The notes under the pieces: generated by a model | Database searches by the model: none | What the model was told of the DNA's origin: nothing | The model's input: only the letters and a program-made list of their open reading frames with translations | Position numbers and translations under genes: made by a program | Origin: Flectonema sp. DT1601 | Taxonomy: Eukaryota | Reading direction: 5' to 3' | Assembly: GCA_964019425.1 (NCBI GenBank) | Contig: OZ025795.1 | Location: 992,001-1,056,000 of the forward strand | DNA: 64,000 nucleotides | Part shown: in pieces, positions 38,535 to 63,081 of the stretch | Numbering within the stretch: position 1 is the stretch's first letter | How the letters are laid out: the number at the start of each line of letters is the position of its first letter

Positions 38535-38562
38535 CCTTAGTAAATACAGACATTTATTTTAT

Positions 38563-39086
<524 letters not shown>

Positions 39087-39173
39087 CATAGACAACCAGG
39101 GAAGATTCCAAAGCATAGGATCGAACAGCCTAAGGCTAGTGAACGATCTGATTGTTAGGTGCCCCTAAAACCC

Positions 39174-39694
39174 CTGGGCAGCAAGAAAAGTAGTTGAGTA
39201 CTTCTGGGTGTTTGGCATCACCCCCCATAGTGAGCAAGTACAACAGGTAGCATTGGTAGTCTGTTGATCCTGAGTGATCCCAGCTACAGTTTTGTTTTTC
39301 TTTCTTTTTTTTTTAAGAAGAAGATCAGGACATCCAAGCACTGCTGGATAGTTGCTGAATGCAGGGCCTGCCTGTGGCATTATAATAACAGGCTAAGTCA
39401 TTTGTAGTTCATAGTTTACCTTTGATTTTATAACTTCACACAGGTACTATGAACGATGAGAGATCCAGTGGGATCACTCAGGGTCTAGTAGAGACCACCA
39501 ATGTTGTGCGTTGATAGGCAAGGTGACCAACCTTGACATTCTTTCTTTTCTCCCCTGTTGTGACAAACACAAAATATACACACAGCTTACAGTGTGTTCT
39601 TTGTGTATGTTTTCTTCAGGTGCGAGTAGTTTTTTTTGTTCTTGCTCTTCAGGGAGGGCCTTAGCCAAAAGCTAACAGTCCAAATCTCACCTGG
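39174..39694 (-). mobile_element. Internal fragment of the hAT family found at 49943-53814 (direct repeat of 52380-52899)
   Basis: About 520 bp near-identical to 52380-52899. Both copies give the same track ORF, MPQAGPAFSNYPAVLGCPD. Confidence 0.9.
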
Positions 39695-39699
39695 TAACT

Positions 39700-40707
39700 C
39701 AACCCACTCTCACAGCCCACTCCCTTTAAATCTATCCACACCCCCCTCTGTCTTTAACGTAGAAACGGAACAGGAAAAACGTGAACTCTTGGAAAAAGAG
39801 AATCAACAACTGATCGCTGAATGTGATTTAGTGAATAGTTCTCTTCTCTCATTAGTTCAAAGAACTAACTCTCTGGAGGAAAAAAGGACGATCGAGCTGG
39901 CGCGACAAACACAAAGAGCGGACCATGCTGAAATGTTTTATTACAACTTACAACAAAGGTTCATTCTATTAAACAATGAATTAGAATCTAAGTGTAGGGA
40001 TGAAACTGGAACAAAAATTCAGCTCTATTTGTCTCAACAAGAGGTCGCAACATTGCGTGCTGGCCCCCAACTGTCTCATTTTTCCCAACAATTTTCCCCA
40101 ACACCCCCTTTTTTATTCGAATCAACGTCCACGGTAAAGAATTACCGACTCCCTCTCATCGCAACAACCCATTGCTCCTGGACTCCCAAACCCCGTCTTT
40201 CCTCTTTTTTTACCCCTCATTCTCCATTGATCACGTTCCCTTCTGAACTGTCTCAAAGTAGACTACTGGTATCGTCTTCTGCTCAAACGGAACAAGAAAA
40301 AGACAGTGCGGCGACCTCATCGATGGAAGAATCACCTATTGCGAGGCAAACCCGCGAGGCAATGGTCCGAAGGTAGACTCGATTTACTGGACAACTATTA
40401 TCAAGCGGTAAGTGACTCTCTCCAGACAAATGAGAAAGTGGCGCTGCTCTCGGAAAAACCATTGGAAGAGCAACGTCGATACTCCGAGTTGAGCTATCAA
40501 CAGAAGACTGTTCATAAAGAACAGCTGGATCAATCCATGTTGTTGACGGAGATGGCCAGTGAGCTCTCTGAGCAACTCTATTTGGCCAAAGACCAAAACA
40601 GAGCTCTCAAGTTTCAGTTACAAACTTGGGCAAATGGTTTTAACCCGCCTGAAAAGGAAGCGCAAGAAGAGAATGAGACCCCTACGCGTCCAAGGGAAAT
40701 GGTTTGA
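39700..40707 (+). pseudogene. Orphan coiled-coil coding relic (two overlapping frames)
   Basis: Track ORFs 39636-40376 and 40306-40707 are E/Q/L heptad-rich. There is no clear ATG start, and the strand is opposite to the host genes. Confidence 0.35.
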
Positions 40708-43612: not shown

Positions 43613-44492
43613 ACTTTCTTTTTTTTTTTTTTTTTTTTTAACAGGCCCAAAGGGCGACAATGATGGTTGCTGACCAAGGAATAATATTCAAATGAATTTT
43701 CGTTTCAAAGAAACGAACAGAATTAAGAGAGAGGCAGAGAAAAAAGAAAAAAAAAAGAAAGAAAAGAAAAAAAAAAATATGAAGAGGAAATAATCAAACA
43801 TGAAAAAATAAAAAAAAATAAAATAAAATATAAATAAAAAACGTTGTATGAAAAAGGAAAAAAAAGAAAAAGAAAAAAAAAAGACCAGAAAAGGAAAGAG
43901 AAAATGAAAAGGTATAATATTATTGTGGGGATATGAGGATAGCAGGGAAATGCTCTTTTTTTTTTTTTTTTTTTTTTTTTTATTTATTATTTAAAAAAAA
44001 GGAAACAATCAGTTTAGTGTCTCGATCAGGACGGAAAATAGAAAGTGATCGACATAGTCGATCGATAAAAAAACAATGATGAATTTCGATAAAGTGGGAA
44101 GTAACGGACTGGGAGCTTTTGGCTCCTGCCCTATTCCCGATGTAAACTTTCTTTTTATTTTTTATTTTTTTTTAACAGGCCCAAAGGGCGACAATGATGG
44201 TTGCTGACCAAGGAATAATATTCAAATGAATTTTCGTTTCAAAGAAACGAACAGAATTAAGAGAGAGGCAGAGAAAAAAAAAAAAAAAAGAAAGAAAAGA
44301 AAAAAAAAAATATGAAGAGGAAATAATCAAACATGAAAAAAAGAAAAAAAAAAAAAATATATAAATAAAAAACGTTGTATGAAAAAGGAAAAAAAAGAAA
44401 AAAAAAAGACCAGAAAAGGAAAGAGAAAATGAAAAGGTATAATATTATTGTGGGGATATGAGGGATAGCAGGGAGATGCTCTTTTTTTTTTT

Positions 44493-44500
<8 letters not shown>
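43548..44500. repeat. Direct duplication (43548-43980 / 44081-44500) separated by one unit of the AT-rich repeat family
   Basis: Both copies start GAATTTCGATAAAGTGGGAAG and end GATAGCAGGGA.ATGCTC followed by poly-T. Confidence 0.9.
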
Positions 44501-44577
<77 letters not shown>

Positions 44578-45312
44578 CGGGAAGATAAAATGGAAACTAC
44601 TTTCTTTGTCCTTTCTCATTTTACAACAAATTTGTAAAATCTTTCTACTGACTCTGATCGTTGTCTCGTCATACAGCGACAGGGAAAACCCGCGAGCTGG
44701 GGACGACAGTCTTCTTTAGCATTTAAGCATTTTTCGACTTGAAAAGACATGACCCTTCAATTTAATGAGTTCTCATGTTTCTGGGTTTGGGATGGGGAAT
44801 GTGCACTTCTTCTCTTGATCCTTTGTTCTCATGGACCCCTTGTCTCTGTGCACAAAAGATAATTCGTCGTCTACCCAGCTTTACATTTGTCGCTGTACCA
44901 GTAAATAAAATGGGGCGAAAGAAGGGGGTGTGAGTCGTCCGTCCTTTGATCTCTGGGGCGTACGGACGTCAAGTTTTTTCGCTTGAAGGTTTTTCATCCT
45001 TTTCTTGGGTTGGGGGGCGGCCTTTGATTTTTATAATATGTGTGCGGCCTTTGGCTCCACTGGTCGGTGTTTCCTGGGGGGGGTGAAAAGCATGTTTTGG
45101 TCCGAGTTTGCCTCGTTGACCGGGGTTTTTTTTTTTTTTTTGGGGGGGGGTCTGGTTGCAGGTTGTGTCTCCTGCTTCGCGGGGGCTTTGGTCACGTTTC
45201 TAACCTCGCTCCCGCTCTTGTTCTCCCTCGTCCTCTACCATGTGTTTTGGGTTGGCTCTGGGGTCTTGGCTCTGTCTTTTCCTCGACTCTTGAGACCTCC
45301 TTCGTGGAGTCC

Positions 45313-48300
45313 CTAGCGCCTTCCCCCTTTCGACGAGAAGTCCAGGACCCTTCGCGTTGGATCCCCTTCTCTCTCCCTCATCTCTCCTTGGGTGCTTTTC
45401 TCACTCTGTGACGACGACCTTGTGACCAACTCTACTCCTGCCACACCTTGTCCGTCTCGCTCCGCCGGCTCCGGGCGTACGCCCGCGTCCGTGAACGAGG
45501 TCAGGGAGCCCGGGGGCCCGTGTGCGTACCCCATTGTGTCGGGTGTGTCTCCCTTACCTACCCGACGCAGTGTGGGTTTCCTGTTGTAACTCCGCGGCGC
45601 CTGTTCCCTCGTGGTGCCCTCCACTGGCTCCGGTTCCTTCTGCTTGCGTCTCTTCCTCTTCGCTTTCCTGCTCGGGTCTGGGGAGAGAACCTCTATCCTC
45701 TCCCTCTCTTCTCCCTTCCTGTACCTCCTCCTCGCCTGCCGTTCACCTGAGCTCGGGGTGGACTCTCCCATTTCCGCCTGCAACACCTGCGGACTTGGGT
45801 CCTCCTTTCCGGCCCCCTTTGCCCCCGTCTTTGCCTTCCGGCCTCTCGTGCGTCCCCTTCCCGTATTTGTCTTCGGCGACACACACTCCTCCCTCTCCTC
45901 CTCCATTCCCTTTCTGTACTTCGTCCTCCCTCTCGTGCTCGGTGTCGACACCGTGCCCGGCGATCTCTCTGCGTCTTCCCCGCTCCCGTCACTACCCACT
46001 GCGCGTGGTCCCATCTTCGCCCCCAAACTGGATCTCTCGGCCATTGGTTTTGTTTCGCCTGAGTTCACCAGCTTTGAAAGGGGCTCCGATTGGCCCTCCC
46101 GTCGTGTTTCCGCGTTCCCCCCTTCTGGGTGTAGTCCCAGCATCCAGGCCATCTGACCTGCGTTCCCCTCGGGCGCCGCTCCCTCTTCCCATTCCTGTTC
46201 ATCGACCGTCATGGTCATTTGGGAGTCTGACGATCCCTCCTCCTCTGTGTCTGACTCTGCCACCTGGACCACGTCCTCTGACGTCTCCTCGACGTACTGG
46301 ACTACTGACCCTTCCGTCACATTTTCTCCGTCGACTTCCATCTCCGACTGTGAGTCTTCCAGGTCCTCCAACCCCTCCACTCCGTCCATGCCGTCTGACG
46401 ACGGTGGCTCTCCTGAGTGGTGGGACGTCTCGTCCAGCTCGTCCCCCTTCTCGGCTTGCAGGTCCTCGGCCAGGTGATGGTTTTCGCCTGAGGTCTCTGC
46501 TGCCGACGGGTCTACTGACTGGTCCCTTTCGTCCGTCTGTTCTTCTGCTTCCATGTCCGACGTCCCTGGACTCCCCAAGGAGCCTCCCGACATGGAACCG
46601 TTCCCTTCGTCCTGCCCTGTCGCTGGGGAGGATGATCTATCGTCATCTCCCTCCGACCCTTCCGAGCTCAACTCCAGGACTCCCGCCTCTACCCTTTGCA
46701 CGGCCCCCTTCGGGGTTGGGACCGGGCTCTGCTCGTCTCGGCCCTCTACCCTCGCGTCTTCTCCTTCCACCGACTCTCGGCCGCCTGACGATCCCGTCCC
46801 CTCTTCTGTGTACTGGGGTTCCAGACGCAGTTGTCTTCCCTCCCACCGCACCGTGAAGGGACCCGTCTGTGTCCCGTGTCCCAGGCAGTTCTTTGCCCCC
46901 TCTGTGAAAACCTTCATCACGGCTTCCGTCACTGAGGTCGAGCCCTCCTTCGCCGCTTTTTCAGCCTCCTCCGTCGCGTGTGTTCTCATCCTCTCTGGCA
47001 TCTCCACCAGCGTCGTACGCCTCCCCATCAACTCCGCCTCCTCCAGCACCTCTCTTTGGTCCGTCGACCAGTGTGTCGTGCTTCCTCGCAGCAGCAGGGA
47101 TGCCTCCGCTGGGACGAGGCCTCCACACGCCTTGGCCGCTACCAGCCCCACCAGGGCTGCGAAGTATCGCCCCCAGTGTGTGTCTCCCGCTGGCAGGCCA
47201 GCTGACCATGTGCCCAACACCTCGAAACGGTGTGTGTCCAACCAGCTCGCCGCCGCCCCCAGACGGCCCGTTACCGGGTCTTCCTCGCATGCGTACACCA
47301 AGGTGTACCTCGTCCCTACTTCGCCAACCACCTCCCCCAGCAGGTGGGTTCGGAGGTATCCCTCCGCCTCCCCCTTGCTTGCGAAACTCTTGTGTCTCGC
47401 CGCCGCGTAGCCTGACACCATCGAGTTCGCCTCGTTCCAGCATTGGAACAGGCCTACCGCCCTGCCCCTCGCCACTGCGTACCACTTACGTGGGCTGACT
47501 CCCTCCGTGGCCCGGGTCGGTTCCCTGGTCTCCGGCTGCCACCTCTCTACAAACCTGTCCGCCTCCTTCCTGGAGGAGAAACTCTGGTGTGTCGCATTCG
47601 GGCACCCTTCCGTCTGTGCCTTCGCCTCCTCCCACGATGCATACACTCCCGGTTTCCATCCCACCGCCACCGCATACAGCTTCTCCTCCTTCGACGGGGG
47701 GTCGGGGGATGGGGGCTCTTTTTCCTCGGGTTGTCCCACTTCCTGTGCTGGCTCGTCTCTCAGCCCTACTGCTTCCGCTCCTTGTGCTTCCGTCGTCTGC
47801 GCTTCCACCTGGGCTGGCGCTTCGGCTCGTGGTCTGTCTTCGCCTGATGCCGTCGACCCTCCTGGGAGCGACTGGGATTCATCCGGTTCCGCCGCCTTTC
47901 CCCTCAATTGGGACAGCCCCAGATTCATCTCCAGCTCGATCACCAAGTAGTCGAGCCCGTCCTCCGAGAGTTCCACCGGCTCGTCCCATGCCGCCGATTC
48001 CGCTTCCCAGAGGGCCAGGTTCTCCACCCCTCGTGAGCTTTCCGTCACCTGGTGTTCTATCACCGACGGGAGCGCTACCAACTTCAGCGCCTCCTGCTGC
48101 TCGGCTCCCCACCCCTGCTGCGGTGTGACCACCTCGATCTGTGTCTCACCCCCCAGCAGTTGCGATCTCTCCCTGATCGCGTTGAGCCCTAGCAGCGCTG
48201 CCACGTACTCCGCAGTCGCTTCGTCCCATGTCGGTAGGCAGCCCGACCACGTGAACCTCCTGTCGAGCGTTCCCATGTGTATCAGGCATGCTGCCGCCCC

Positions 48301-49935
48301 CAGCTTCTCCATCTCCGCGTTCCAGACGCTCGATACCAGTAAGAGCAGCTTGCGCTGCGTCTGCCCCCCTACTACTCGCGTCCGGAGGACACACTCCGCC
48401 TCTTCCCTGGACGTGTACCCCGCGGTGTCCTCCTCCGACGGCGGTGCCTCGCGTACCTCCATCCGGTCCTTGTTCGCCACCGGAATCCATCTCACCGGCC
48501 CCCCGACGTCCTCTTGGGTCGATCCCTCCACCCTCGAGTAGACCACTACTACTGGTTTCGTCCCGTGGATCTCCTCTGTCGACACTTGGCTTATTGCCTT
48601 GTCGTCTTGCTTCTGCCAGCCTACTCCGTCCCACGTGTATGACACGTAATGCCCCGCGTTGTCACTCCCGAGGTGTGCGATCGCTCCCGTTTGCTGGTAC
48701 GTCATCACCCTCTCCCCGACCTGCACCTGGAAGCGCTCTTCCCATCCCAAGGACCCTTGCGTGTCCTGCTTGTCTCTCTGGAAGATCAAGGAGCTTGGGA
48801 GCGAGGCGAAACTCTCTTCCAGCGTGGCCTCATTGCTGCCGCACAGCTTCTCGCAGGACCGCTCGACTCTCTCCTTCGTCGGCTGAAGCCTCACTTGTGG
48901 TGTACGGCCACACAGTGGGATCAGCGTCAACTCATCCGTCGATCCGGAGGCGTCCGCACATCCCGTGCAGACCAGCTGTTTCAGCTGTACTGCCGAGAAC
49001 AACGGTTCGCACACCTCTTTCTTCTCCTCCAACAGGGCGTCTACTATGGACGTCAGGGTTCCTACTACCTCCCCCTGCCGCCTGTCTTGTAGCGGGTCGA
49101 ACATCTCGGACAGCTTCTCCAGGCACTCCCCACTCCCTTTGACCACTCCACTCAGGAGGCCCGACATCCCCACTTCCTCCTTCCCCGTCAGCACTTGTGT
49201 CAGTGCCGTGCCCTTCAGCAGGCACTGTACGGACGCGTTGAGGTAGCAGGAGTTCCCGATGTTCGGCAAACCTCTCATCGTCGGGGGCGGTCCTGCCGAC
49301 TGTCGCATTACTTCCGGCTGCTGGATCTCTTCCGTTTCCGCTCTCGGTCTTGGTTCTCTCTCTTGTGATGTCGGCTTCTCCGTCATCTCGGGCGGCGGTT
49401 TCGTCCTTGGCAATGGGTTCACTGAGTCCATCGCCACCGACGCCTCCCTCGCTCTCAGTGCTTCCGCCGTCGCCACTACCACCGATGTCGAGATCCTCCT
49501 CGCCATCTCCCCCGCGATCTCCCGGTGTGGCACCGTCGAGTTCGTTGCGCAGATCTGCACCAACTTCTTCAGGGTCCCCACTGCTTCCCGTCCCATCCCT
49601 CCGTACGCTTCCAGCGCAATTGTCGAGAAATTAATCCCGTGTTTCGTGCACTGCTCCGCGTACTTGTTCCCTTTCAGGGACTCTGCTTCTCTCGCGGCTT
49701 GCCCCGGGGTTTTATACAATTTAATTTTCCCCGGGTTTACCACTGTGATGTCGAAGGCTCTGCCTCTCCCCTCCCTCAGCCCCTCTTGGCAGTACCAGTC
49801 CCCCGGTCTCTGCTTGTTGGGTCCCAGTAGGTGGCTGGGTTCTCTCAGCAGCGGCAATCCCGCCTGCTTAAAGATGGAGATGAACTCCTCCTTCACCCTC
49901 TCGTGTCGCTGGTGCACGTGGCCGTTTTTGATACA
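45313..49935 (-). CDS. Retrotransposon polyprotein, C-terminal part: end of CCHC knuckle, RLE, USP/C19 peptidase, RNase H-like, two RNase H1 hybrid-binding domains, RNase H-like, acidic and basic tails
   Basis: RLE: RHERV...RPGD...AFDITVVNP...K..KY...LEAYGG. USP: GLPNIGNSCYLNASVQCL and HLGSDNAGHYVSY..W.KQDD. HBDs: KLYAVAVGWKPGVYASWEEA and KWYAVARGRAVGLFQCWNEA. Confidence 0.9.
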   Translation of the reverse strand, partial: CIKNGHVHQRHERVKEEFISIFKQAGLPLLREPSHLLGPNKQRPGDWYCQEGLREGRGRAFDITVVNPGKIKLYKTPGQAAREAESLKGNKYAEQCTKHGINFSTIALEAYGGMGREAVGTLKKLVQICATNSTVPHREIAGEMARRISTSVVVATAEALRAREASVAMDSVNPLPRTKPPPEMTEKPTSQEREPRPRAETEEIQQPEVMRQSAGPPPTMRGLPNIGNSCYLNASVQCLLKGTALTQVLTGKEEVGMSGLLSGVVKGSGECLEKLSEMFDPLQDRRQGEVVGTLTSIVDALLEEKKEVCEPLFSAVQLKQLVCTGCADASGSTDELTLIPLCGRTPQVRLQPTKERVERSCEKLCGSNEATLEESFASLPSSLIFQRDKQDTQGSLGWEERFQVQVGERVMTYQQTGAIAHLGSDNAGHYVSYTWDGVGWQKQDDKAISQVSTEEIHGTKPVVVVYSRVEGSTQEDVGGPVRWIPVANKDRMEVREAPPSEEDTAGYTSREEAECVLRTRVVGGQTQRKLLLLVSSVWNAEMEKLGAAACLIHMGTLDRRFTWSGCLPTWDEATAEYVAALLGLNAIRERSQLLGGETQIEVVTPQQGWGAEQQEALKLVALPSVIEHQVTESSRGVENLALWEAESAAWDEPVELSEDGLDYLVIELEMNLGLSQLRGKAAEPDESQSLPGGSTASGEDRPRAEAPAQVEAQTTEAQGAEAVGLRDEPAQEVGQPEEKEPPSPDPPSKEEKLYAVAVGWKPGVYASWEEAKAQTEGCPNATHQSFSSRKEADRFVERWQPETREPTRATEGVSPRKWYAVARGRAVGLFQCWNEANSMVSGYAAARHKSFASKGEAEGYLRTHLLGEVVGEVGTRYTLVYACEEDPVTGRLGAAASWLDTHRFEVLGTWSAGLPAGDTHWGRYFAALVGLVAAKACGGLVPAEASLLLRGSTTHWSTDQREVLEEAELMGRRTTLVEMPERMRTHATEEAEKAAKEGSTSVTEAVMKVFTEGAKNCLGHGTQTGPFTVRWEGRQLRLEPQYTEEGTGSSGGRESVEGEDARVEGRDEQSPVPTPKGAVQRVEAGVLELSSEGSEGDDDRSSSPATGQDEGNGSMSGGSLGSPGTSDMEAEEQTDERDQSVDPSAAETSGENHHLAEDLQAEKGDELDETSHHSGEPPSSDGMDGVEGLEDLEDSQSEMEVDGENVTEGSVVQYVEETSEDVVQVAESDTEEEGSSDSQMTMTVDEQEWEEGAAPEGNAGQMAWMLGLHPEGGNAETRREGQSEPLSKLVNSGETKPMAERSSLGAKMGPRAVGSDGSGEDAERSPGTVSTPSTRGRTKYRKGMEEEREECVSPKTNTGRGRTRGRKAKTGAKGAGKEDPSPQVLQAEMGESTPSSGERQARRRYRKGEERERIEVLSPDPSRKAKRKRRKQKEPEPVEGTTREQAPRSYNRKPTLRRVGKGDTPDTMGYAHGPPGSLTSFTDAGVRPEPAERDGQGVAGVELVTRSSSQSEKSTQGEMREREGDPTRRVLDFSSKGGRR

Positions 49936-49942
49936 GATTGAG

Positions 49943-52900
49943 CATACTTGTGCAAAAAGCTAAAAGCTAAAGCTAAGCTTTTTGGAGCTAAAGCTAAGCT
50001 ATCTAGCTTTTTTTAGCTTTTTTTTTGAAAAAAATTTTTTTTTAAATTTTGGCATGTTTCTGTACTTTTTTGATATTTTTTTTGGTTTTGTGAGGAAAAA
50101 AAGTGTGGAAAAAAAAAAAAATCACCAATTATAATATTTCCAGTATCCACCACTACAGGTTTTTGTGTGTTTTTTGGCTCATTTAAGCTGTTAAGTGACG
50201 TGATTTTTCGATATTTGCGCAACCTGGTATCTACAAAGATAACATTTCATAATTCAACTATGTGTACTGTTGGGAGAGAAATATGTTTTTTTTTTTATAT
50301 GACAGGCAAATTATTACTTATTACAATCAACACTGAGTATGATTTTTCGCTATACTTGCCTTAACACACATTTTCCCTACCTGGATTAAAAAAATGTCAC
50401 TAAAAGGAGGAGATATCCATAAATTCACTAAATAATTATACCACAGAAGTAGTAAAATACAGGAAACAGGCGTTGTTTCCCCTTGCGTTTCAGCAGGAGA
50501 TCTTCAAGTCTCACTGCCCGAACCCAGCAGTCGTACACTGTGTTCCATCGGGTACTGCCTATGCATTTAAGTTGCAGAGGGCTTCCCTTTCGACCCTTCT
50601 GCACCTCAAGGAACAACTCCTTCCTTTTGGGGGTTGCCATCTCCTCTGTCAGATCCTTCACCTTATTGTATGCCGTTGAGAGGAGGGGGATACCATTGAT
50701 GAGATCCTTCATTAACAGCTGCAATGAATGTGCTGCACATCTGATAGTGAGGAGCTTCTCCTTCCCTGCAGCCTGAAGCATCTGCTCTAGAGCATCTGCG
50801 TCAATGCCCTCTGGGTCTTCTTCTCCTGCACTTTCACAAGATGCTGCACTGTCATTGTCAGTGTCTTCTTCAAGACTCTCCATCTCTGTGATGGTTTATT
50901 AAATCTTAGTTTGTAAAATGTTGGGCAGCAGGTAATGTTTGCTTTTTTAGATACATACTAACTGGAAGTGCTGCTTCCTTCAGGGCATTCTGCATGCTCT
51001 TTGCATTGTCAGCACAGAAGGCAAGTGGAACAACATTAGCTTCAAGTAGCTCAGTAGTGATGCTTCGAAGTACCTTCAAGGCATCTGCAGCAGAAAAGCT
51101 AGTAACTACTACACTTCTAAAAAACAGGGCCATATGGCCATTGTGAATACTGAAGTTCAGCACTCGTCGCTTTCCAGGTAGTGTCGCCCCATCAAACATA
51201 ATTGTAACATCATCGCCTTCAAACCGCTTAAGCAACTTCTGACGGCAGGTATTCCCAAGCTTCTCAATGTGGGCAAGCAGACTCCTTCGCGTAACACCTG
51301 CAGGTGCAGACGTAATGCCAGTGAAAGTTGGATCTTCAACCACTTGCAGGGCTATCTTATTTTGGCAGAAGAACACAGCTATTTTGTCCATCATGCTCTG
51401 TTGGTGTGAGACATTGTACAAACACTTGATGTTTCTAAAGAAATTCAATGGTTTACATACCAAGTCTTTTAAAACACACAGATCAGTGGTGGAAGTGCCA
51501 TGTGTTACCCCCAACTCCTTAGGCTTCCCGCTTCCTGGGAGGTTGTGATGACAACGCAAGTGTGCCCGCAGGTTACTTGTTCCAGCGTTTTTCTTCCCTG
51601 AGCCTCCATTCTTCATCCTAATCTCACCGCAAATGTTGCACTTGCCCCTATCCCCATTATCAACAAACCAACCACCCTCACCAAAGAGTGGTCGGTCAGC
51701 CTGTGTTGTCCCAACCTCCAATCCCCCCTCCTTAGCTTCCTGTGGAATTGGCGCAGCTGGTATCTTGGGAAGTACTTCAGGCATGCTCTCTTTCGGCTTA
51801 CTATCAAGGATATTGCGAATCCTCTCCTCCTTTGCATTCCACACCTCAGTTGCATCTCTGCACTTCTGTTCTGCATCATCTACCTCTGCTTTTAGTCGCT
51901 TCACTTCATTTTCCATCTCCCCATGTTCGGATTCAAGTAACCGCTTCTCGTTCTCAATCTCTAGAACCCTTGTTTCTAACTCTGTAACTTTCTCTGAGCT
52001 GCCTGTCTGCAACACATTTGCTAGAGTTGCGTGTGTAATTTGTGCTACCTGCAGTTGAATCCCTTCCGCTAGGGAAGAATGTTGTTTCTTTAGGGCACTG
52101 CACTCATCTTGCAAGCTAAGTAATTCCTTCTCAGCAGCAGTGTTTGACTCCTGCAGTTTCTGCGTTACTGCTTCATGCTCTTCCTGCAGCAGCAACTGCT
52201 CTTCATGCATTGCATCCTGGAATGCCTGGAACTCAGAGTCCCTGTAGCTTTGTTGGGCTACAAGATGGTGTTCTTGCAACTTTTCCACTGCAGTTATACC
52301 ATCGTCAGTAGAAATGTTACTGAATGATGACTGCTCCTTTTGCCAGTTTCCAACTAAGTTTTCTACATCCCCACTACCTCTGGGCAGCAAGAAGGAAAGC
52401 AGTTTAGTACTTCTGGGTGTTTGGCATCACCCCCCATAGTGAGCAAGTACAACAGGTAGCATTGGTAGTCTGTTGATCCTGAGTGATCCCAGCTACAGTT
52501 TTGTTTTTCTTTCTTTTTTTTAGAAGAAAATCAGGACATCCAAGCACTGCTGGATAGTTGCTGAATGCAGGGCCTGCCTGTGGCATTATAATAACAGGCT
52601 AAGTCATTTGTAGTTCATAGTTTACCTTTGATTTTATAACTTCACATAGGTACTATGAACGATGAGAGATCCAGTGGGATCACTCAGGGTCTAGTAGAGA
52701 CCACCAATGTTGTGCGTTGATAGGCAAGGTGACCAACCTTGACATTCTTTCTTTTCTCTCCTGTTGTGACAAACACAAAATACACACACAGCTTACAGTG
52801 TGTTCTTTGTGTATGTTTTCTTCAGGTGTGAGTAGTTTTTTTGTTCTTGCTCTTCAGGGAGGGCCTTAGCCAAAAGCTAACAGTCCAAATCTCACCTGGA

Positions 52901-53814
52901 AATTCAACTCAGTTTCTTAGCTGAGTGACTAAGATGTCGAAAGTGAGAGAGATTCCCCCTGTACACTGTGACTGAATGATAGGGATTTGATGCCAAATCA
53001 GCATCAGAGGGTGGAAATCGAAGGATAGTGGCAGGATCTTGGCGATACATGATACCAACATGCCTGTTATCACCTGATCCTCGGGCTACTTGCACATAGC
53101 CTCTCCATTCCACTATCTTCTTCGCTGCCTCTTTCTTGAATCGCAGAACGATTCGATCATCGACTTGCAAGTCACATGCAAGTTGCTGCAGCTCAGCAGC
53201 CTCAAGTGGAGTTTCAAGAGCATTCATTGTAGGAGATGGATCTGAAAGGAGAAAAAAAACACATTGCAACAGGTTAAGTTACTGTAGTTTGACAGGGAAC
53301 TTTGTAAGACATTTTTTAAGAACCTGGGGGGGGGTAAATTAAGGAGGGGAAATTTGGATTTATGCAGTTTTGACACCTCTTACCTTATATCCTTGCTCTG
53401 TTCACAGATTTAGCTGCTAATATACCAAAAGACCCCAAAAAAACCCAAACAAGACTGGTTACTAGCTTTTTTAATTAAAAAAAATTTTTTTTACTCCCCT
53501 TCAAGTAATTTTTTTTTTTTTTTTTTACATTCTGAGAGAATAATTTTTTTTTCAAAAAATTCAAAAAAAAATGCTTTCAGTGCCTACAGTGCCAGTTTCT
53601 CAATTTTCCACTGCTTTATTTTCAACAACTTTCCATTTTTTTTCTAAAAAAATTCCAAAAAAATACCAAAAATGTCCAAAAATGAGGTATTTTTTGTTTG
53701 AAAATTTTTTTTCAAAAAAGCTAAAAAAAAGCTAAAAAAAGCTAAAAAAAGCTAAATAGCTTTAGCTTAGCTCTAAAAAGCTTAGCTTTAGCTTTAGCTT
53801 TTTGCACAAGTATG
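49943..53814 (-). mobile_element. hAT DNA transposon, 3872 bp, TIRs starting CATACTTGTGCAAAAAGCTAAA, 7-bp TSD GATTGAG
   Basis: Inverted termini of about 60 bp with AGCTA subrepeats. GATTGAG occurs at 49936-49942 and 53815-53821. Confidence 0.95.
50428..53227 (-). pseudogene. Intron-containing hAT transposase (coiled coil, BED finger, D..D, CxxH, RW); C-terminal E and dimerisation region not seen
   Basis: CNIC...GTSNLRAHLRCHH (BED), IMFDG, CADNA, CAAHSLQL and STRWN. The 5' exon structure is unresolved. Confidence 0.8.
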
Positions 53815-56800
53815 GATTGAGGCATGGTATCCCTGCCTATCCTGTGGGCCTGAGCATATCCTGCATACTGCCCCTTCCGCGAACAGCGCTGCGCCCAATC
53901 GCATCCCACATGCGATCCTGAACGTCTCTGGGTCCATCGCGCACTCTTCATCTGCTTGTTGCAGCCATGCGCTCGCCTTATCCATGCGCAGGGAGAGCAG
54001 CCTCCCTTTATCGCGCGGGTCATTCGCCCCCGCCAGCAGGCAGTCTCTCTTGACCTGGTCCAGTTTCGCCGAGGACAGCCTCTGGGGGTTCGGCCCCGGC
54101 CCGTCTTCTTCTATCCTTAGCTCCTCCGGGAGGGCGAGGTTCAACCCCTTCTTCAGTGCTGGCATCAGCATCCCCTTGAACCCCTCCCACAGTGACTTGC
54201 TCACCCCTTGGACTAATTCCAGGGATCCCAATAGTGCTGCTCCCCTGTGCTCTGCACATGACCGCAGCCCCAATCCCCCCATCCGGGTCGGCAGTTGTGC
54301 TTGCATCCACTTTGGCCCCTCCAGTGTCAGGCCCAACACTCGGCTCGCCGTGGACCTCATCAGCTCGTCCACCTTCCGCATCGAGGTGTCCATTTTCCCA
54401 TGCGTGCAGCATCGCATCAGGTGGGTCACCTTGCAGAAGCCCATGCATTGCCTTAGGAGCACCATGGCCACCTGCCGGTCCTGCAGGTCTGCTAGCAGCT
54501 CCGCTTTCTTCTCCAGCTGCGCCACCTTCCTGTCGACGAACTCCTGGCAGTGTTCCTCCGTCCCGAACGGTGCCCCCAGGAAGTCCCCGTTGTACAGTGG
54601 GGGTCTCATCCCTTCCAACCCCCACCCCAAGGGCAGGGTGTTCTGGGCTGAGTCGAGCACGTGCGTCTGGCACTTGTCCGGCCTCAGCGTCAGCCCCAGC
54701 TCCGCCGTCTCCTTCTGCAGGATTTGGAGGGCCTTGTCTACCTGTTCCAGGGTGCCCGCCACCAGCCCATCGTCCAGGTAGAAGCACGCCAACTCCGGCT
54801 TCGCCTCCAACACCTTCTGCAGCGCCGGCTTGATTGCCAACGAGAACAGCAAGGGACCCAACGGATCCCCCTGCTGAGCGCCCTCCTCCGAGCTCAGCCT
54901 CTCGTCCCCAAACAGCAACCACGTCGGCGCTCCGTAACACCAGCTGACCCAGCTCTCCAGCAGGGTATCCCTCGTCGAATCCAGGAACGCCCCCCTCTTC
55001 ACGCAGTTGAAGGCGTTCGAGAAGTCTATCTTCACGAACACTTTCTGTGACGAGAGCGCGTGCTCCGCGCGGAACTCATGCAGGGTGTGCACCGCCGCCT
55101 CCACTCCCCCCGACACCGCTACTCCTAGCTGTCTCACTTCTAGCAACGAGCTCCTCGCCTGGGACCTGTATGCCCCGCACAGGATCTTCGCCACCAGCCG
55201 CCTCCATGTTTCCCCCACCGCGACTGGCCGGTGCTCCCCCGGCTTCCCTTCTTTCTCCAGCGCCGTCAGGTTCGCCCCCGCCAGCAGCGGCGCTACTTCC
55301 CGCGGCGCCCTCCCGTTCGCCAGAATCCTCACCACCTCCGTGATCGAGGCTACCAGCCCCGGCACCTCACCCCGCTCCACCACGTCCTTCAGGTGTTGCG
55401 GCGCGAGGCCCGAAGGCCCTCCACTCGACCCCCTGTGGAAGGAGCGTAGGCATGCTAGCAGCTCCACCTCTGCTATCTGCACCTCCTGCCCTGCCGTGGC
55501 CGATGGGGGTCCGCTCGCCCTCGGGTGTAGGGTGCGCATCTGCTCCAGCACCTTCTCGGTTCGTTCTGCTGGCGGCGGCGCGTCTAGGGCCGAGATCGCC
55601 TGTGACAGGCAACCCTCCCTCGCTAGCGACGTGGCCCTGTCGTTCCTTCCTTTTTGCCCCGCCTCTTTCACTGCTGGCCTTCCCGTCGCCTTGCGGGGGG
55701 CCGCCGCTTTCCACAGTCCCTCAAATTCCCCCCGAATCCATGCTTGCAGGTCGTCGACCGCCCCTGTCAGATCGCTGGTCGACAACCTCCTACCCCCCCT
55801 CCGTATCCTCCGCAGTGTACATGTCGGGAGCATCAAGAGCAGCTTCCATGCCCACTCATCGTTCCGCTCCACGACTAGGTCGAGCGACAGCTTGAGTGCT
55901 CGCCCCAGATGATGCAACAGGGACACCGGCAGCTTCTTCGCTATCGGCCTCCTCCTGCTGGCTATTTCCTCCAAAGAGGGGAAGCTCTGGCTCTCCAGCA
56001 CCCGCTTCCGGAACGCCGTGTACACGTCCCCCAGTTGGACCTTCTGCAGTTTCTCACTGCACCCCGGATGCATCGGCTGGTCCTGCCCGATGATCCCACA
56101 GCACACCGGACATTCCCGGAGGCCTAGCCTCGCCAACTGTCCATGCGTCAGCGGGTTGCCACTGAATGCGTGCTCGTCCACGTGTCTTAGGAGCTCCGCC
56201 CACTCCTCGAAGCCTCCCTTGTGTTTCGGGCACTCCGCTTGGGGGCACTCGTGCAGCTGGGCCTGTCGGGAGGCTGTCTGCAGCACTGCCGGCTCGCCTC
56301 CTGCTGCTTGCGACAGCGGGCCTGGCGACACTAGCTCCAACCTCCGGGCGCTCTGTAGCAGCCGCGCGACGCAGTCCTCGGATGCCTCCACTGGGTCGTA
56401 GTGACACCCGTTCTGCAGGGTCAAGACCAGCGTCTGCTTCGGGTCCGATGGCCCTTCCACCACCAGCGTTTCCGTCCTCACCACGACGACGAAGCGGCAC
56501 TGTAGGTCCTCTGCCATGACCTGTAGGGCCAACGCATCGCCCCAGCATCCATCCTCTTCTAACGCCCTCGCATATACTCCGAATGCGTCCGCGTCCTGGA
56601 AGAAGACCTCGAACCTTTCCCTGTTCTTGGTCAGGTACCCTGCCGTTCTCCTGCGGAGCTCTCCATGTCTGCCCTTCCACCCCTCTGGCGTCTCTAGGAG
56701 TTGGCACACACTCCTGAACAGGCAATTCCCATCCCCAATCACCCGAAATACTTTTGCTCCCTCGCACTTCAGGCTTGCCAGTTCCGGCGCGGGTCCCGTC

Positions 56801-57714
56801 GCTACCCCCAGCCGTCCCTTGAGGTCCAACATCTCCCGACACCTCACTGTCTGGTGCACCAATCCGGTACTCAGCTCCCCGCAGGCCTTGCAGATCTGCT
56901 TTCCGAGTCTGTCGGAAGCCATCTGGGCCGTTACCTCCCCCGGTACCACTCCCTTCAGGTGTTGTTTGAAGTGGTACTCTAGGTCACCCCTCACCCAGAC
57001 GCTGCACCCCACCACCGGGCACTTCGTCCTCTCCTTGCTTTGCCCTCCTCCTGCCAGGTCTGACGGCCTCGCATACCATGGTCTGGGCTCCGCCTTGTGC
57101 CCTCCTGGCTTTGTCCAGTCCCTTTCGGGCCCTGCCCGTCGCTTCTTCGGTGTCTCCGCCTTGTTCTTCCTTGGCCTCTCTGTCTCCGCGCGGAATCTCT
57201 CTCGCCTGGCGTGGAACTTCTCCAACTCTCCCGCCCACCGCTCCCACCTCTCCTGCCGTTCCTTCAGCAGCTTCCTCCTCCTCCTTTCCAGCCGCCTTGC
57301 CGCCTTGGACGCCACTTTCGGGGACGCCCTCTTCAGGAGCTCCCTTCCTCCCTTGTCTGGAGGTGGCTTTGGGTGGTCTCGCCTCACCCGGTTCCCGGCC
57401 GTTTCCGTTCCCCTCCGCGGGACCCACACCCCCTCCCGTCCATGTTGGAAAGCGCGTCCGCTTGCCGTATTGTTGGGGCTGTTTGAGCTGTTGGGGGTTA
57501 CAAATGGGTGCGGGGGGATCGGGCGTGTTACGCGTCGGCTGATGCGCGATGAAAACAGTGGGCCTTTGTCCAGCGTTGTGAATAGAGGGGTGTGCCATCC
57601 GCCTGGCACTGGGGCTAACCTCTGCTTACCCACTCCGGACGTCTGTTGCGCCCTCGTTCCACTTAGTAGTGCCCACAGCAGCACGTACCCACACAGTAAC
57701 ATTGTTTTCTCCAT
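53815..57714 (-). CDS. Retrotransposon polyprotein, N-terminal part: hydrophobic leader, Zn fingers, OTU protease, Zn fingers, reverse transcriptase, start of CCHC knuckle
   Basis: Zn fingers CPVVGC..HFKQH and CPQAEC..HVDEH. OTU: IGDGNCLFRS..WGD..HYD. RT: RPVAVGE.WRRL, KIDFSNAFN, GAQQGDPLGPLLF, FYLDDG and QLP.RMGGLGL. Confidence 0.93.
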
Positions 57715-57717
57715 TCT

Positions 57718-57754
<37 letters not shown>

Positions 57755-57865
57755 ACTCTTCCTTTTCCGTTCCCTTCGCTGTGGATGATTTGTGTATGGA
57801 ACCCGAAAAAAGACAATCGACTTACCTGCTCTTCTCCTTGTTAGCCCTGTACGTGTGTGTGGAGT

Positions 57866-57907
<42 letters not shown>

Positions 57908-58076
57908 CCGGCTCGCGTATCCTCCGCTTTCCGAACTCTTCTGTCTATGCGGTCACCCCCGTACAGTTCCGACGCAGAATGGTAGTCACCACCACAGGCA
58001 CCAAACAAAGCTAGTGAGAGAGTTCTTCCTTCTCCTCTCCCGCAGGCTGATTCGTAAAGTTTTGTCTTAAAAGAGA

Positions 58077-58370
58077 GTTTTAACAAGAACAAAAAAAGGA
58101 TATGCTCTGTTTGCAGGTCTTAAAAGCAAAGTTTAAACGAGAACAAGAAAAGATATGTTCTTCTCGCGCGCTGACTAGCGGAAGACCGTGTATCAAAGCA
58201 GAGTTTAAACAAGAACAAAAAAAAAAGGATTTGTTCTTTTCGCTGTCTTAAGCGGTGTTTAAACGAGAACAAGAAAAGATATGTTCTGTTCGTGCGATGT
58301 TTTGCGGAAGACCGTGTCTCAGTGTAGTCTTAACGAAGAACAAAAGAAAATATTTGTTCTGTTTGCGCGT
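58077..58370. repeat. Five imperfect 55-70-bp tandem units, most with an AGAACA...TGTTCT hairpin
   Basis: Units start near 58077, 58132, 58203, 58257 and 58327 (GTTTAAAC.AGAACAA.AAAAGATATGTTCT). Confidence 0.8.
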
Positions 58371-58607
58371 TCACCAGCGGTCCAGTCTCCAGAAAAGATG
58401 AGAAGGACGTATGAGCTGGAGGAATAATTAACTTTTGACAAAAGCAAAGTACTCTCGAAGACAACTCGAATCAGAATGCAGGTGGGGAAAATTTCAACTC
58501 CCTCTTCAGCAGAGCAAGGTTTCCACAGCAACAACAATTATCCGCGCCTTCAATGTCCGTTTGTGACTGCTGGCCGACTCAAAGCGTTCGTAGACCGAAG
58601 ATAGATG

Positions 58608-58657
<50 letters not shown>

Positions 58658-58740
58658 CCTACCCCGCCGATGTACTAGAGCTTACTGAAGGGCCCGCGTT
58701 TATCTCCTCCTCTGCAAGTATGCCTATGCAAAATCTAATT

Positions 58741-58777
<37 letters not shown>

Positions 58778-59020
58778 CCTCTTTCTTCCTTAGTATTTTC
58801 TAAATAAACAACGACAAGTAATACCAAATTCTTCTAAATAAATATGACCTAATTAATATATATAATAAACAATAAAATAAAATTTTTTTTTCAACAATAT
58901 ACTTTGGCGCAGTGGTTTTTGTCACCGTCTGTCTTCTGGTCCACCTGGGTTCAATACCCTGTGGGGGTCGGGGGGCGACGGGGGCGACTTCTGCGACTTA
59001 AAAGACTTTAAAGCGCTAAG

Positions 59021-59669
59021 CGCTTCGCTACACGAACACGAGTGTGTCACGTGGCTGCCGCCGATTTCTTCTTTTGTTGGGGTGGGGGAGGGTGGATGGG
59101 GTGAGCGTGGGGAAGGGTGGTCGGGTTGTGGGATCCGCTTGCGTGGAAAAATTCCTAGCTGCGCTTTCCTACTCGCTGACGGGGATGGGGCGAGGGAGGG
59201 AAAAAACTGTGAAGAAGATGTTTTAATTTAACAATAACAAAAATGTACTCTAATGTAGACAGATAAATGTAACAAAATAACAGATAGTAACAGAATATAC
59301 AGACAGATAAACAGACAGATAAACAAACAAATAAATAAGCAAATAAACAACAATCTAAGAGAGGAATGAAATTAAGAGGAAGTAATTAACAAAAGTAAAC
59401 AAATAAATAAGGAAGAAGAAGGTCAGTCACATACACCGTCTCTTCTACGTCGTCGTCGTCGTCGTCTTCGAAGTCGCCGAAACGCTTCGCTACACGAACA
59501 CGAGTGTGTCACGTGGCTGCCGCCGATTTCTTCTTTTGTTGGGGTGGGGGAGGGTGGATGGGGTGAGCGTGGGGAAGGGTGGTCGGGTTGTGGGATCCGC
59601 TTGCGTGGAAAAATTCCTAGCTGCGCTTTCCTACTCGCTGACGGGGATGGGGCGAGGGAGGGAAAAAAC
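59021..59669. repeat. 187-bp direct repeat (59021-59207 / 59483-59669), G-tract-rich on +
   Basis: Identical blocks at an offset of 462 bp. Confidence 0.97.
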
Positions 59670-59707
59670 AATAAAGTACAGAAACTGTAGCTTTAGAATC
59701 GTTGGTT
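59669..59707 (-). ncRNA. Spliced-leader (mini-exon) 39-nt exon without SL intron; retro-copied SL rather than a functional SL RNA gene
   Basis: The minus strand reads AACCAACGATTCTAAAGCTACAGTTTCTGTACTTTATTG. It has the euglenozoan 39-nt length, the conserved CAGTTTCTGTACTTTATTG 3' half and the diplonemid-type AACCAACGAT start. No GT donor follows. Confidence 0.93.
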
Positions 59708-60431: not shown

Positions 60432-60678
60432 TTTCTTATTTATTATTTAAAAAAAGGAAACAATCAGTTTAGCGTCTCGATCAGGACGGAAAATAGAAAG
60501 TAATCGACATAGTTGATCGATAGAAAAAAAACAATGATAACATTGTTTATTCTTTTTTTTTTTTTTGGGAAAACCTACAGATCCACCCCCAGGTTTGGAG
60601 AAACGTACACTACGGTCACGGCCTTGTGTAGCATTTTCGACCCCAGAAGATTAAATAAAAAAAAACTTTTTTTGCATG

Positions 60679-60757
60679 TCACCACTGGTTTAGTGGTAGA
60701 TCTTTGGACTTGCATTCGCCAGGCTGCAGGTTCGAATCCGTGTCGGTCGTTTTTTTT
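60679..60757 (+). promoter_or_regulatory. tRNA-like Pol III unit (A box, B box, T-run) inside the left MULE end
   Basis: TGGTTTAGTGG ... GGTTCGAATCC ... TTTTTTTT. No paired acceptor stem. Confidence 0.65.
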
Positions 60758-60989
60758 CCCCCCCCCTTTTTTTTGCTTCCACGTCATGTGATTTAACTGA
60801 GAACGATGCGGTGAATATCGACCAGACAGTAGACTACACAAACTACACAATCTTGACACAAACAGAGAGGAAGGGTTGTGTGTGCTTCCATAAAAACACA
60901 CAGTCTACAAAAAAGACATGCACGTTTTAAATCAAAACGTGAACAAAAAAGATAAAAGCTAGTAGTTAAATGTACAAAGGAGCCAGTGA

Positions 60990-62792
60990 TTATCTGATGG
61001 AATCGGGATTGCTTGAAGATGATGATGTCGACATGTCACGCTTCTTCCTCTTCCCTACAATGCGGGAAGCTCCTTCCGAAGGACCGTAGCGACAACTACG
61101 GCTGTTGTGCCCATGCCTTCTACACTTGCCACATTTATTCGGTATTGTCTCACCTGCACTGCGGATGCGAGTCTTCTTCGGCCTGCCTACACCCTTCCTC
61201 ACTTCAGGTGGTAGTGTTCCATCAGATGTGGTGTCATGCGCGGGTTCAGGCTTCAGTGTGAGTTGATAGAGGCTGTCATAGGAAGTTGTCCACAGGTATG
61301 CTGGGCACACACGGCTGTCTGTCAATGTGTTTATATCCAGGTGCGCTGCAACTCTCAGAATATGCATGCAAGGCAGGTTGTAGCGCCTGTAACTTGGACA
61401 GCTACATGTAAAGGGATGCCCTTCCTTCACAACAGAACCTGTTTGGGGTTGGTTTGGCTTGCCAACTTCAAACTCACCGTCTTCGAGGCTTGTGACTTGA
61501 TACGTGAAAGCCACAGTTTCCTCACGTATCTTTTGCTCGATCGGTGGGATCGGTCTGTTGGTTGAGGTTTGTTCGGAGAATGCACCTCGCCTCTCCGCGA
61601 GCTTGTCGGTCAACCACCTTCGAGTCTGCTGGATCAGAGTTAAAACTGACCCCTCGCGTGCCGGCTTCAGCAAAGAGTTTATGCTTTCCACGGCGTTGCT
61701 GGTGTAGGTATCACACCTCGCAACATCATCTGGCCAGTAAGCATCTGCCCATCGCTTCATATCGGTGTTCTTGAGGTACCGATGGGCCTTCTTCCCGTGT
61801 TGCTGCTTAACATCCTTCAGCACCTCCACCACCTTCGTGCTGTCCGCCTTCGCCAGTTCCCACACTGTTTTTGTGGCTTCTTGCTTCGTCAGGCTAGTCT
61901 CCACAGCAACATTCTTAACCAGGTGGTTAATACAAATAGCGTGGTGGCGAATGGTGTCGTCCAACGACGTGTCGGACTCCAGTCCCTTCTGCCTGTCGGA
62001 GAACAGTGTAAATCGGGATAGTCGATTTCCATACACAGCCAGTATTTTTCTGTTGTGGAGTGTCCACGACTGCAAGTCCTCCGACGCGGATATTGTGAAC
62101 CCCAATGGCAGGAGCTTCCTGTTGGCGTCCAGACCCAGGGTCACTAGTAACACACCGCGAAATGACCCATAAAGGCCACATGCGTCAGAGAAGATTACCG
62201 GTAGCAGGTAATCAATTGCCACAGGTGGCAGAAACGCCCAGAAGCAGCTGGCGAAAACCAAATCCCTGCGTCGTTCAATGGAGAATGTCATCTCCGGATT
62301 TTTTTCTTTTAGGGCTTCGAAGTATGATTGGAGCTGCCCATACTCCGACCCTCGCTTTCCATACACCTTCTCCTTCGCTATCGTTAACCCCTTTTCCACG
62401 GTGCCTTTCTTCACCGGAATATCCCTGAAGCTCTTCAGGTCAACTGCAGCGGCTTTAGGCCCGTAGTCTGGAAAACTACGCACCTTTTCCTCCAGCACCG
62501 ATGCCACCCACTCTGCTACTCCATCCCCTTCTCTGTTGCACAAGCCAGGGGAACATGTGTGAGCTTTCACCTCCCTCACCTGGAGCTCACCTTCCTTGAC
62601 TACCGCCTTCACAACATACAAGCAGTCTTCTTCATTCTTGCATACCAGGGTGGTTCGGTTGCGATCACTCCTTTTCACCCTGAAGGTGTGGCCGTGCGTT
62701 GTTGACCACTCAAATACCCTGGCCTTCAGCGCTATGACGGTGGCAAACACTTCACCTTCCGACACCTGCAGTTGTGCAACGTTGTTGTTCAT
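60990..62792 (-). CDS. MuDR/MULE transposase (600 aa, apparently intact)
   Basis: N-terminal C..C..HTC, FSDACGL, FSDRQKGL, CINH, TSNAVESIN, SWIM (CSC......LPCMH) and a C-terminal CGKC...GHN...C knuckle. Confidence 0.95.
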   Translation of the reverse strand: MNNNVAQLQVSEGEVFATVIALKARVFEWSTTHGHTFRVKRSDRNRTTLVCKNEEDCLYVVKAVVKEGELQVREVKAHTCSPGLCNREGDGVAEWVASVLEEKVRSFPDYGPKAAAVDLKSFRDIPVKKGTVEKGLTIAKEKVYGKRGSEYGQLQSYFEALKEKNPEMTFSIERRRDLVFASCFWAFLPPVAIDYLLPVIFSDACGLYGSFRGVLLVTLGLDANRKLLPLGFTISASEDLQSWTLHNRKILAVYGNRLSRFTLFSDRQKGLESDTSLDDTIRHHAICINHLVKNVAVETSLTKQEATKTVWELAKADSTKVVEVLKDVKQQHGKKAHRYLKNTDMKRWADAYWPDDVARCDTYTSNAVESINSLLKPAREGSVLTLIQQTRRWLTDKLAERRGAFSEQTSTNRPIPPIEQKIREETVAFTYQVTSLEDGEFEVGKPNQPQTGSVVKEGHPFTCSCPSYRRYNLPCMHILRVAAHLDINTLTDSRVCPAYLWTTSYDSLYQLTLKPEPAHDTTSDGTLPPEVRKGVGRPKKTRIRSAGETIPNKCGKCRRHGHNSRSCRYGPSEGASRIVGKRKKRDMSTSSSSSNPDSIR

Positions 62793-62887
62793 TTGAAACT
62801 TAAGGATTAATAACTAACGGGGGGTTAAAAAAAAAAATGACGCAACCGGGACTCGAACCGACGCAGCTGGAAAAAAATTGAGCGGGG

Positions 62888-62966
62888 AAAAAAGTACCCC
62901 CGGGGGATTCGAACCCGCGACCCCCCGAATGTCAACCCGCTACCAACACCACTGTGCTATCCCGGA
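62888..62966 (-). promoter_or_regulatory. tRNA-like Pol III unit inside the right MULE end (extra B box near 62850)
   Basis: Minus strand TAGCACAGTGG ... GGTTCGAATCC ... TTTTTT. A second GGTTCGAGTCC plus T-run lies further inward. Confidence 0.65.
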
Positions 62967-63081
62967 TTTCAAAAAATCGGCGCTCGGAATAGAGGGGCAA
63001 AGATTTTTGACACGAGCTTCACAAGGCCGTGACCGTAGTATACGTTTCTCCAAACCTGGGGGTGGATCTGTAGGTTTGCCC

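Follow-up and report, generated by a model that had tools for sequence, protein, structure and literature searches.

A complete spliced leader in genomic DNA at the inferred 5′ end of a CRE/SLACS-like retrotransposon copy from Flectonema

The window analysed here is a stretch of 64,000 nucleotides on contig OZ025795.1 of Flectonema sp. DT1601. On its minus strand a complete spliced leader (SL) exon is joined to the DNA behind it exactly where an acceptor AG would stand. A twin of that AG is still present 462 bp farther downstream, and after it come a leader free of ATG and a retrotransposon open reading frame (ORF). We consider it likely that this arrangement arose when the trans-spliced 5′ end of an autonomous element was copied back into DNA. 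The full reading, in which a CRE/SLACS-like element was copied from its own trans-spliced RNA and retained a spare acceptor left over from a tandem array, is one that we favor with some reserve. A sequence-only reading of the same DNA had proposed a cDNA of a trans-spliced 5′ end lying beside its unspliced template. Its first part stands insofar as the SL most likely derives from a trans-spliced RNA. Its second part gives way to one continuous element copy, the leader of which holds a 462-bp acceptor-bearing unit that is probably a tandem repeat. Feature coordinates are collected in Table 1.

Table 1. Features of the element copy in the window, and SL exons without a following GT in public contigs
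Feature	Position	Strand	Basis or remark
SL exon, 39 nt, complete, written in DNA	59669..59707	-	inferred 5′ end of element copy
Block A, first copy, 186 nt	59483..59668	-	joined to SL at acceptor-AG position
Block B, 48 nt, GAC repeats	59435..59482	-	remainder of the unit's exon-like part
T-rich tract I, 228 nt, GTATGT...CACAG	59207..59434	-	predicted spare trans-splice acceptor or cis-intron
Block A, second copy	59021..59206	-	directly behind intact AG
462-bp unit (B + I + A)	59021..59482	-	closed loop in runs X2, X3, X4
Rest of 5′ leader, 1,306 nt, no ATG	57715..59020	-	ATG count
Retrotransposon ORF, 5′ part: OTU protease, Cys/His knuckles, reverse transcriptase	53815..57714	-	Pfam
hAT-like DNA transposon within ORF	49943..53814	-	terminal inverted repeats, 7-bp target duplication
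Retrotransposon ORF, 3′ part	45313..49935	-	domain search and motifs by eye
Likely 3′ UTR	44578..45312	-	between stop codon and poly(A)
97-nt poly(A), likely 3′ end of element	44481..44577	-	longest A-tract in window; A-tracts common here
Non-GT SL	L001:6411-6449; L002:9997-10035; L003:9997-10035
Non-GT SL	L004:9997-10035 and 11685-11723		L001 to L004: one 237,777-bp IMG/VR contig
Non-GT SL loci	L009, L010, L014, L015, L022, L023, L028, L029, L030
Non-GT SL loci	L038, L041, L047, L049, L050

The spliced leader exon and its genomic junction

A pattern scan of public contigs for the exon returned 53 matches in 51 loci. GT follows the exon directly in 34 of the 53, mostly as GTATGG or GTATAG, and at least eight of the ten GT-type loci scanned lie amid 5S, U-snRNA, 7SL or tRNA genes. 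Because GT-followed copies occur among RNA genes, we take the 39 nt to be a real SL exon. Identical to the exon of SL RNA genes with a GT donor, it is by its sequence a euglenozoan SL exon, and it agrees with what we take to be the diplonemid SL. The SL exon of Diplonema papillatum has the same length of 39 nt, and essentially all diplonemid mRNAs bear a 39-nt SL (PMC10161547, excerpt); the excerpts of PMC7049700 and PMC11771631 do not print the exon sequence. Exon length, exon sequence and the best named protein match, which is to D. papillatum, make a diplonemid the likely host. The scan also brought up a contig in a bacterial MAG (L005:1-2578) with a eukaryotic SL RNA gene beside 5S, U5, U6, 7SL and tRNA genes, which is likely a contamination of that MAG. 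At L020, L027, L031, L043 and L048, the SL RNA genes of relatives are densely clustered with numerous tRNAs and, depending on the locus, 5S, 7SL, tRNA-Sec, U1, U2, U4, U5 and U6.

The other 19 of the 53 matches lack a following GT. Inspection of their surroundings reveals the motif AAAA(A/T)TGA 18-19 nt upstream of the SL in 18 of the 19, compared with 0 of the 34 GT matches, and an ATG 8-68 nt after the SL in the same 18. We take this motif to be the early promoter of giant viruses. The 237,777-bp IMG/VR contig with such exons encodes an A32 ATPase and VLTF3. The pattern suggests giant viruses, with diplonemids as their likely hosts, whose genes have the host SL built in, a practice for which our search by title or abstract start found no literature. 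A virus-type, DNA-encoded SL was rejected for the window, where the motif is absent upstream of the SL, and no reverse transcriptase relatives of the element were found in viral contigs.

The window holds a single SL copy, the next-best exact pieces elsewhere being 13 nt long. As had been reported from the sequence alone, the exon is complete, lacks the SL intron and precedes one of two identical blocks. The two A blocks are identical over 186 nt, or 187 nt when the shared G is counted, which on the minus strand is both the end of the SL and the G of the AG. Directly after the exon stands TTTTTT rather than GT. Hallmarks of an SL RNA gene (a GT intron, an SL-gene flank) were not found at the window SL, and RNA-family and tRNA searches found no 5S, U2 or tRNA gene within the window. 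When aligned with a 636-bp contig of public run X4 that carries an identical exon, possibly from another organism of that sample, with GT at the 3′ border of the exon, the two sequences part exactly at both exon borders, 59669 and 59707. The base before the SL is A in the window; in the public matches it is T in 49, C in two and G in one, with the contig starting at the exon in the last (n=53). At the level of the assembly, the locus is an SL at an acceptor position in genomic DNA, as in SL-relic retrocopies.

A chimeric read or cDNA contamination might also have carried the SL into the assembly, and the junction is indeed known from assembly sequence rather than from reads of this genome. We regard such an artefact as highly improbable: the SL is internal to the contig, preceded by 4.3 kb of repeat and MULE sequence, and the stretch downstream retains intron-like tracts and a DNA transposon with a target duplication of its own.

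The upstream DNA has features of its own. The 5′ flank (60430-59708, minus strand) contains a short frame with CxxCDxxxCC and a basic tail, followed by A-tracts. The frame weakly resembles the C-terminus of protein P0002 (7/14, E 0.02-0.05), and the flank may represent what is left of a further truncated retroelement at its 3′ end. Farther upstream (60567-63081, minus strand) lies an intact-looking MULE transposon of 600 aa with 66-bp inverted ends, which was inserted into an A-tract belonging to a 110-140-bp repeat; tRNA-like A/B-box motifs lie close to both ends. At the far side of the window, a gene at 1300-4616 comprises six 591-bp tandem repeats of ~99% identity with ten DOMON matches.

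The 462-bp unit and its predicted acceptor

Tract I, which separates the two A blocks together with block B, is 54% T and 70% pyrimidine, begins with GTATGT and ends in CTTCTTCACAG, bearing out the T-rich acceptor described earlier at 59207. It holds the sole ATG between the SL and the ORF (59432), with a TGA immediately after it. Among the 1,695 minus-strand YAG sites of the window, the CAG at 59207 ranks 8th when T content is scored over 200 nt upstream and only 124th when pyrimidine content is scored over the nearest 60 nt. This AG is a plausible trans-splice acceptor, not the strongest of the window. Given the GTATGT donor, the tract may alternatively be a cis-intron. Cis-splicing of tract I would strip acceptors, which counts against the reading of a spare acceptor. 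According to PMC4558846 (excerpt), the SL loses out to a cis donor in animals.

Contigs from four public sequencing runs (X1-X4) indicate how the unit is arranged; depth in these contigs does not give copy number. They are four of five runs listed as sharing words with the window, in each case a small share, and no RNA run was among those five. In X2, X3 and X4, a contig of 486-492 bp spans exactly one unit of 462 bp (or 456 bp) and returns to its own start, and run X1 holds a 409-bp piece of the unit. Block B is longer by one triplet in the contigs of X1 and X4. The loop joint falls within 187 letters that fit both places, so that the contigs cannot phase it. Cover of the four runs spares the 5′ flank and is patchy over the element body (X1), and among the contigs listed none crosses the SL-A or A-leader junction; neither gap was counted as evidence. 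Since the contigs close on themselves rather than exit to the SL or the leader, the shape of the graph suggests many units per exit. The 462-bp unit is probably a tandem repeat, and the two A blocks are better read as one-and-a-part units of that repeat than as a cDNA and its template. A search of metagenome contigs for the block A pattern gave 0 matches.

Two other identities of the unit were considered. A coding repeat was set aside, the exon-like A+B part (234 nt) containing no ATG, and a ribozyme or structured RNA in SL-A-B was rejected, with no Rfam match and a fold z of 0.06.

The identity of the A blocks allows another history, in which the copy was inserted as SL, A and leader, and B, I and A were gained later by recombination or gene conversion through block A. 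In accord with this, the two A copies share a base at position 59064 that differs from the unit in X2, X3 and X4. Such a patch at the DNA level requires an extra event, and the base at 59064 may be a strain difference; we judge it very improbable, hardly more credible than an artefact.

The retrotransposon and its ATG-free leader

The ORF begins 1,993 nt from the SL on the same strand, matching the ~2 kb of the sequence-only reading. Pfam matches in its 5′ part are OTU (8.8e-13) and RVT_1 (2.5e-17). The 3′ part contains the end of a CCHC knuckle, a UCH protease and two RNase H1 N-terminal domains, as well as PD..D..K residues, picked out by eye, that we take to be a restriction-like endonuclease motif. 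A hAT transposon split the ORF of this copy after the element had inserted; the 3,872-bp hAT-like insert has weak domain matches to zf-BED and DUF659. An intact relative of 2,840 aa (P0066) has the same start Met and is 99.3% identical to the 5′ part and 99.7% identical to the 3′ part, and a second (P0074) is intact at 2,836 aa. The protein cluster has 35 members. The 15 members listed lie on 15 different contigs, are 93.5-100% identical to P0066 over the main alignment and, being possibly from the same assembly as the window, describe a young dispersed family rather than independent support. Judged by its sequence, the element is a CRE/SLACS-like non-LTR retrotransposon with a single ORF of 2,840 aa, and it belongs to a family that is young and dispersed.

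Its reverse transcriptase, CCHC knuckle, putative endonuclease motif, single ORF and poly(A) are those of a non-LTR element with a restriction-like endonuclease (RLE type, CRE/R2 group), and the R2 protein 9nl2 matches its reverse transcriptase with E 8.9e-06. The best named protein match, 37% identical, is a D. papillatum protein annotated "SLACS 132 kDa"; the annotation name of P0001 is the one pointer to the CRE clade. Trypanosomatid reference proteins do not occur among the matches listed (the best 120 of 177 in one search).

Several features of the protein and the DNA around it deserve record. The start of the ORF (57714-57650, minus strand) encodes a hydrophobic stretch that by eye resembles a signal peptide, which is odd for a non-LTR element and recurs in P0066 and P0074. 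The whole ORF (57714-45313, minus strand) combines two different deubiquitinase-type domains, OTU and UCH, with two RNase H1 N-terminal domains. The same domain set occurs in the sister family of P0002 (up to 4,730 aa), and the data suggest that the P0066-type and P0002 families share one assembly. A 537-bp piece of the hAT interior is present at 39170-39703 and 52376-52908 with 97% identity, and a (TAAA)n run of ~520 bp (38560-39080) adjoins the repeat copy. A ~400-bp block occurs twice immediately beyond the element on its downstream side (44480-44081 and 43955-43548, minus strand), each time behind an A-tract. The two copies bear the most T-rich acceptor-like sites of the window, a second duplication of an acceptor region.

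The ends of the element differ from those of an SL-gene insertion. No SL remainder was found near its 3′ end, and no clean target-site duplication was found at its ends. A 10-nt word common to both flanks stands off by 3 nt on the SL side and by 13 nt on the poly(A) side; 6 of 3,000 random 40-mers reach a word of that length, and 12 A-tracts were tried. With no 3′ SL remainder, a flank that is not an SL gene and at least 15 members on 15 different contigs, a SLACS, CZAR or CRE element in the strict sense was rejected. The same observations, along with the missing SL intron, speak against the tie to SL genes of the CRE/SLACS type that the earlier reading had invoked.

They bear equally on descent from a SLACS-type parent that resided in an SL RNA gene and was transcribed from the +1 of the SL promoter without splicing, with this copy landing off target. 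The duplication made by CRE1 ends at exon nt 39, and the SL of the window is complete to nt 1, as such a parent would provide. Transcription of SLACS reportedly begins at +1 of the SL gene that it interrupts (PMC3447711, excerpt), and the insertion site of SLACS and CZAR lies between nt 11 and 12 of the SL (PMC5814959, excerpt). Descent of this kind leaves unexplained why the exon ends exactly at the AG of its twin behind a T-rich tract. The missing 3′ SL remainder, the window's want of 5S, U2 and tRNA genes and the dispersal of the family weigh against it too, and neither the element protein nor the 462-bp unit has a match in the 51 SL-bearing loci, a weak point given that these are mostly from other organisms. 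We consider this origin improbable.

The leader provides the closest link between the SL and the element. Between the acceptor and the ORF start, 1,492 nt contain 0 ATG, compared with a mean of 9.8 and a minimum of 2 in 1,000 dinucleotide shuffles, of which 0 were as low as observed. ATG is the sole trinucleotide of the 64 that is absent there, and the antisense strand has 19. The ATG-free run measures 1,718 nt; no other run in the window, on whichever strand, exceeds 971 nt. The flanking regions are not depleted, with 10 ATG observed versus 8.8 expected in the 5′ flank and 11 versus 6.5 in the 3′ UTR. The absence of ATG fits a scanned, capped 5′ UTR, and the 1,492-nt stretch is very likely the 5′ UTR of the element, which lends support to the earlier proposal that the block belongs to the 5′ end of the retroelement. 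The leader part at 57715-59020 further contains four A-tracts, 54-126-bp repeats, an antisense A-box/B-box-like motif (58905-58959, plus strand) and a 47-nt intron-like stretch, GTAAGT...CAG (57825-57779, minus strand). As two intron-like stretches are retained, the copied RNA would not have been fully processed.

The ATG pattern also bears on a one-off capture, in which the 462-bp unit is a host repeat (a satellite or the insertion target of the element). An RNA reading through from that repeat into an element copy would have undergone trans-splicing on one occasion before being copied into DNA, and the spare acceptor would be incidental. The depletion is established mainly for 59020-57715 (0 versus 9.5 ATG), blocks A and B being too short for a test of their own; in the loop contigs nothing connects the unit to the element; and dozens of D. 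papillatum host genes have repeat-bounded 5′ regions with ~400-bp units (PMC10161547, excerpt). Against a capture of this kind, the ATG-free run extends from the ORF start into tract I, and the AG at 59207 lies near the upstream edge of the run, where an acceptor of the element would be expected. Overall, we find a one-off capture unlikely, if the most serious of the competing accounts.

Proposed mechanism and comparison with known systems

Under our preferred reading, copying from the element's own trans-spliced RNA, the parent copy would have held two or more acceptor units in tandem and been transcribed by read-through. Trans-splicing at an upstream unit would have capped the RNA and discarded all sequence 5′ of that unit. 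Target-primed reverse transcription would then have run to SL nt 1, with the copy inserted outside an SL gene. The copy would thereby preserve, as DNA, the passage of a reverse transcriptase up to the very first base of a capped leader. The acceptor at 59207 is predicted to let the new copy undergo trans-splicing again, and the two identical A blocks to allow re-expansion of the array by unequal recombination, the array acting as an expendable 5′ end. One acceptor with two A blocks would be the smallest form able both to re-trans-splice and to regrow the array. This mechanism is drawn from the DNA of one element copy, the other family members being represented by their proteins.

Extension of the mechanism to a strategy of the whole family is tentative, and we hold it somewhat short of even. 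In such a strategy, trans-splicing would cut and cap the RNA, and the tandem spare acceptors would shrink by at least one unit per jump and regrow by recombination. The ~400-bp arrays of acceptor plus UTR at ordinary D. papillatum genes imply that the array may be a general habit of the genome rather than a strategy of the element. Trypanosome LINEs are thought to avoid trans-splicing because it removes the 5′ end of the RNA; if the proposal is true, trans-splicing with spare acceptors would be another way to survive in polycistronic, trans-splicing genomes. A family-wide strategy would add a third 5′-end answer besides internal promoters and self-cleaving ribozymes, and may explain the first SL homology at the 5′ end of elements that target SL genes. 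We found no report of a trans-spliced non-LTR element with tandem spare acceptors in a search whose scope excluded the original SLACS, CRE1 and NeSL descriptions.

SLACS and CZAR carry 5′ repeats of ~185 bp. Together with CRE, they insert into SL genes (PMC12278014, PMC5814959, excerpts). Like SLACS, CZAR, CRE1 and CRE2, the element has a single long ORF, a reverse transcriptase, a restriction-like endonuclease, zinc knuckles, poly(A) and internal repeats (PMC12278014, excerpt), along with SL exon sequence at its 5′ junction. In contrast to them, it lies outside an SL RNA gene, lacks an SL target duplication and has dispersed copies; its ORF is much longer, with OTU, UCH and RNase H1 N-terminal domains, and its SL joins at an acceptor position.

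Dinoflagellate retrogenes are well known to carry SL relics, which arise by retroposition of trans-spliced mRNA (PMC6050394, excerpt), and the SL in the DNA of the window would have come about in the same manner. Here, however, the RNA copied back would be that of an autonomous element, the SL is neither truncated nor mutated, and the copy still contains a duplicate of the acceptor region. As for L1Tc, ingi and RIME of trypanosomes, a full 5′ end has to be kept in a trans-splicing host. L1Tc and ingi make unspliced RNAs and so keep their length (PMC1874656, excerpt); the element studied here has neither an Rfam ribozyme match nor an unusual fold.

The repeat-bounded 5′ regions of D. papillatum resemble the leader in their tandem units of ~400 bp, which are intergenic and 5′ UTR in character and lie upstream of a gene; in the account of PMC10161547 (excerpt) they differ in standing at host genes, in being degenerate and in having no genomic SL. 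Mouse L1 has a repeating promoter motif in its 5′ region (table in PMC5814959, excerpt). By analogy only, the array may be likened to the promoter monomers of mouse L1 and to Drosophila HeT-A, in which expendable or tandem 5′ units offset the loss of each round. The expendable 5′ ends of HeT-A and the logic of monomers compensate for 5′ loss per round in this way. Unlike in mouse L1 and HeT-A, the repeated signal in the present element would be a splice acceptor, not a promoter.
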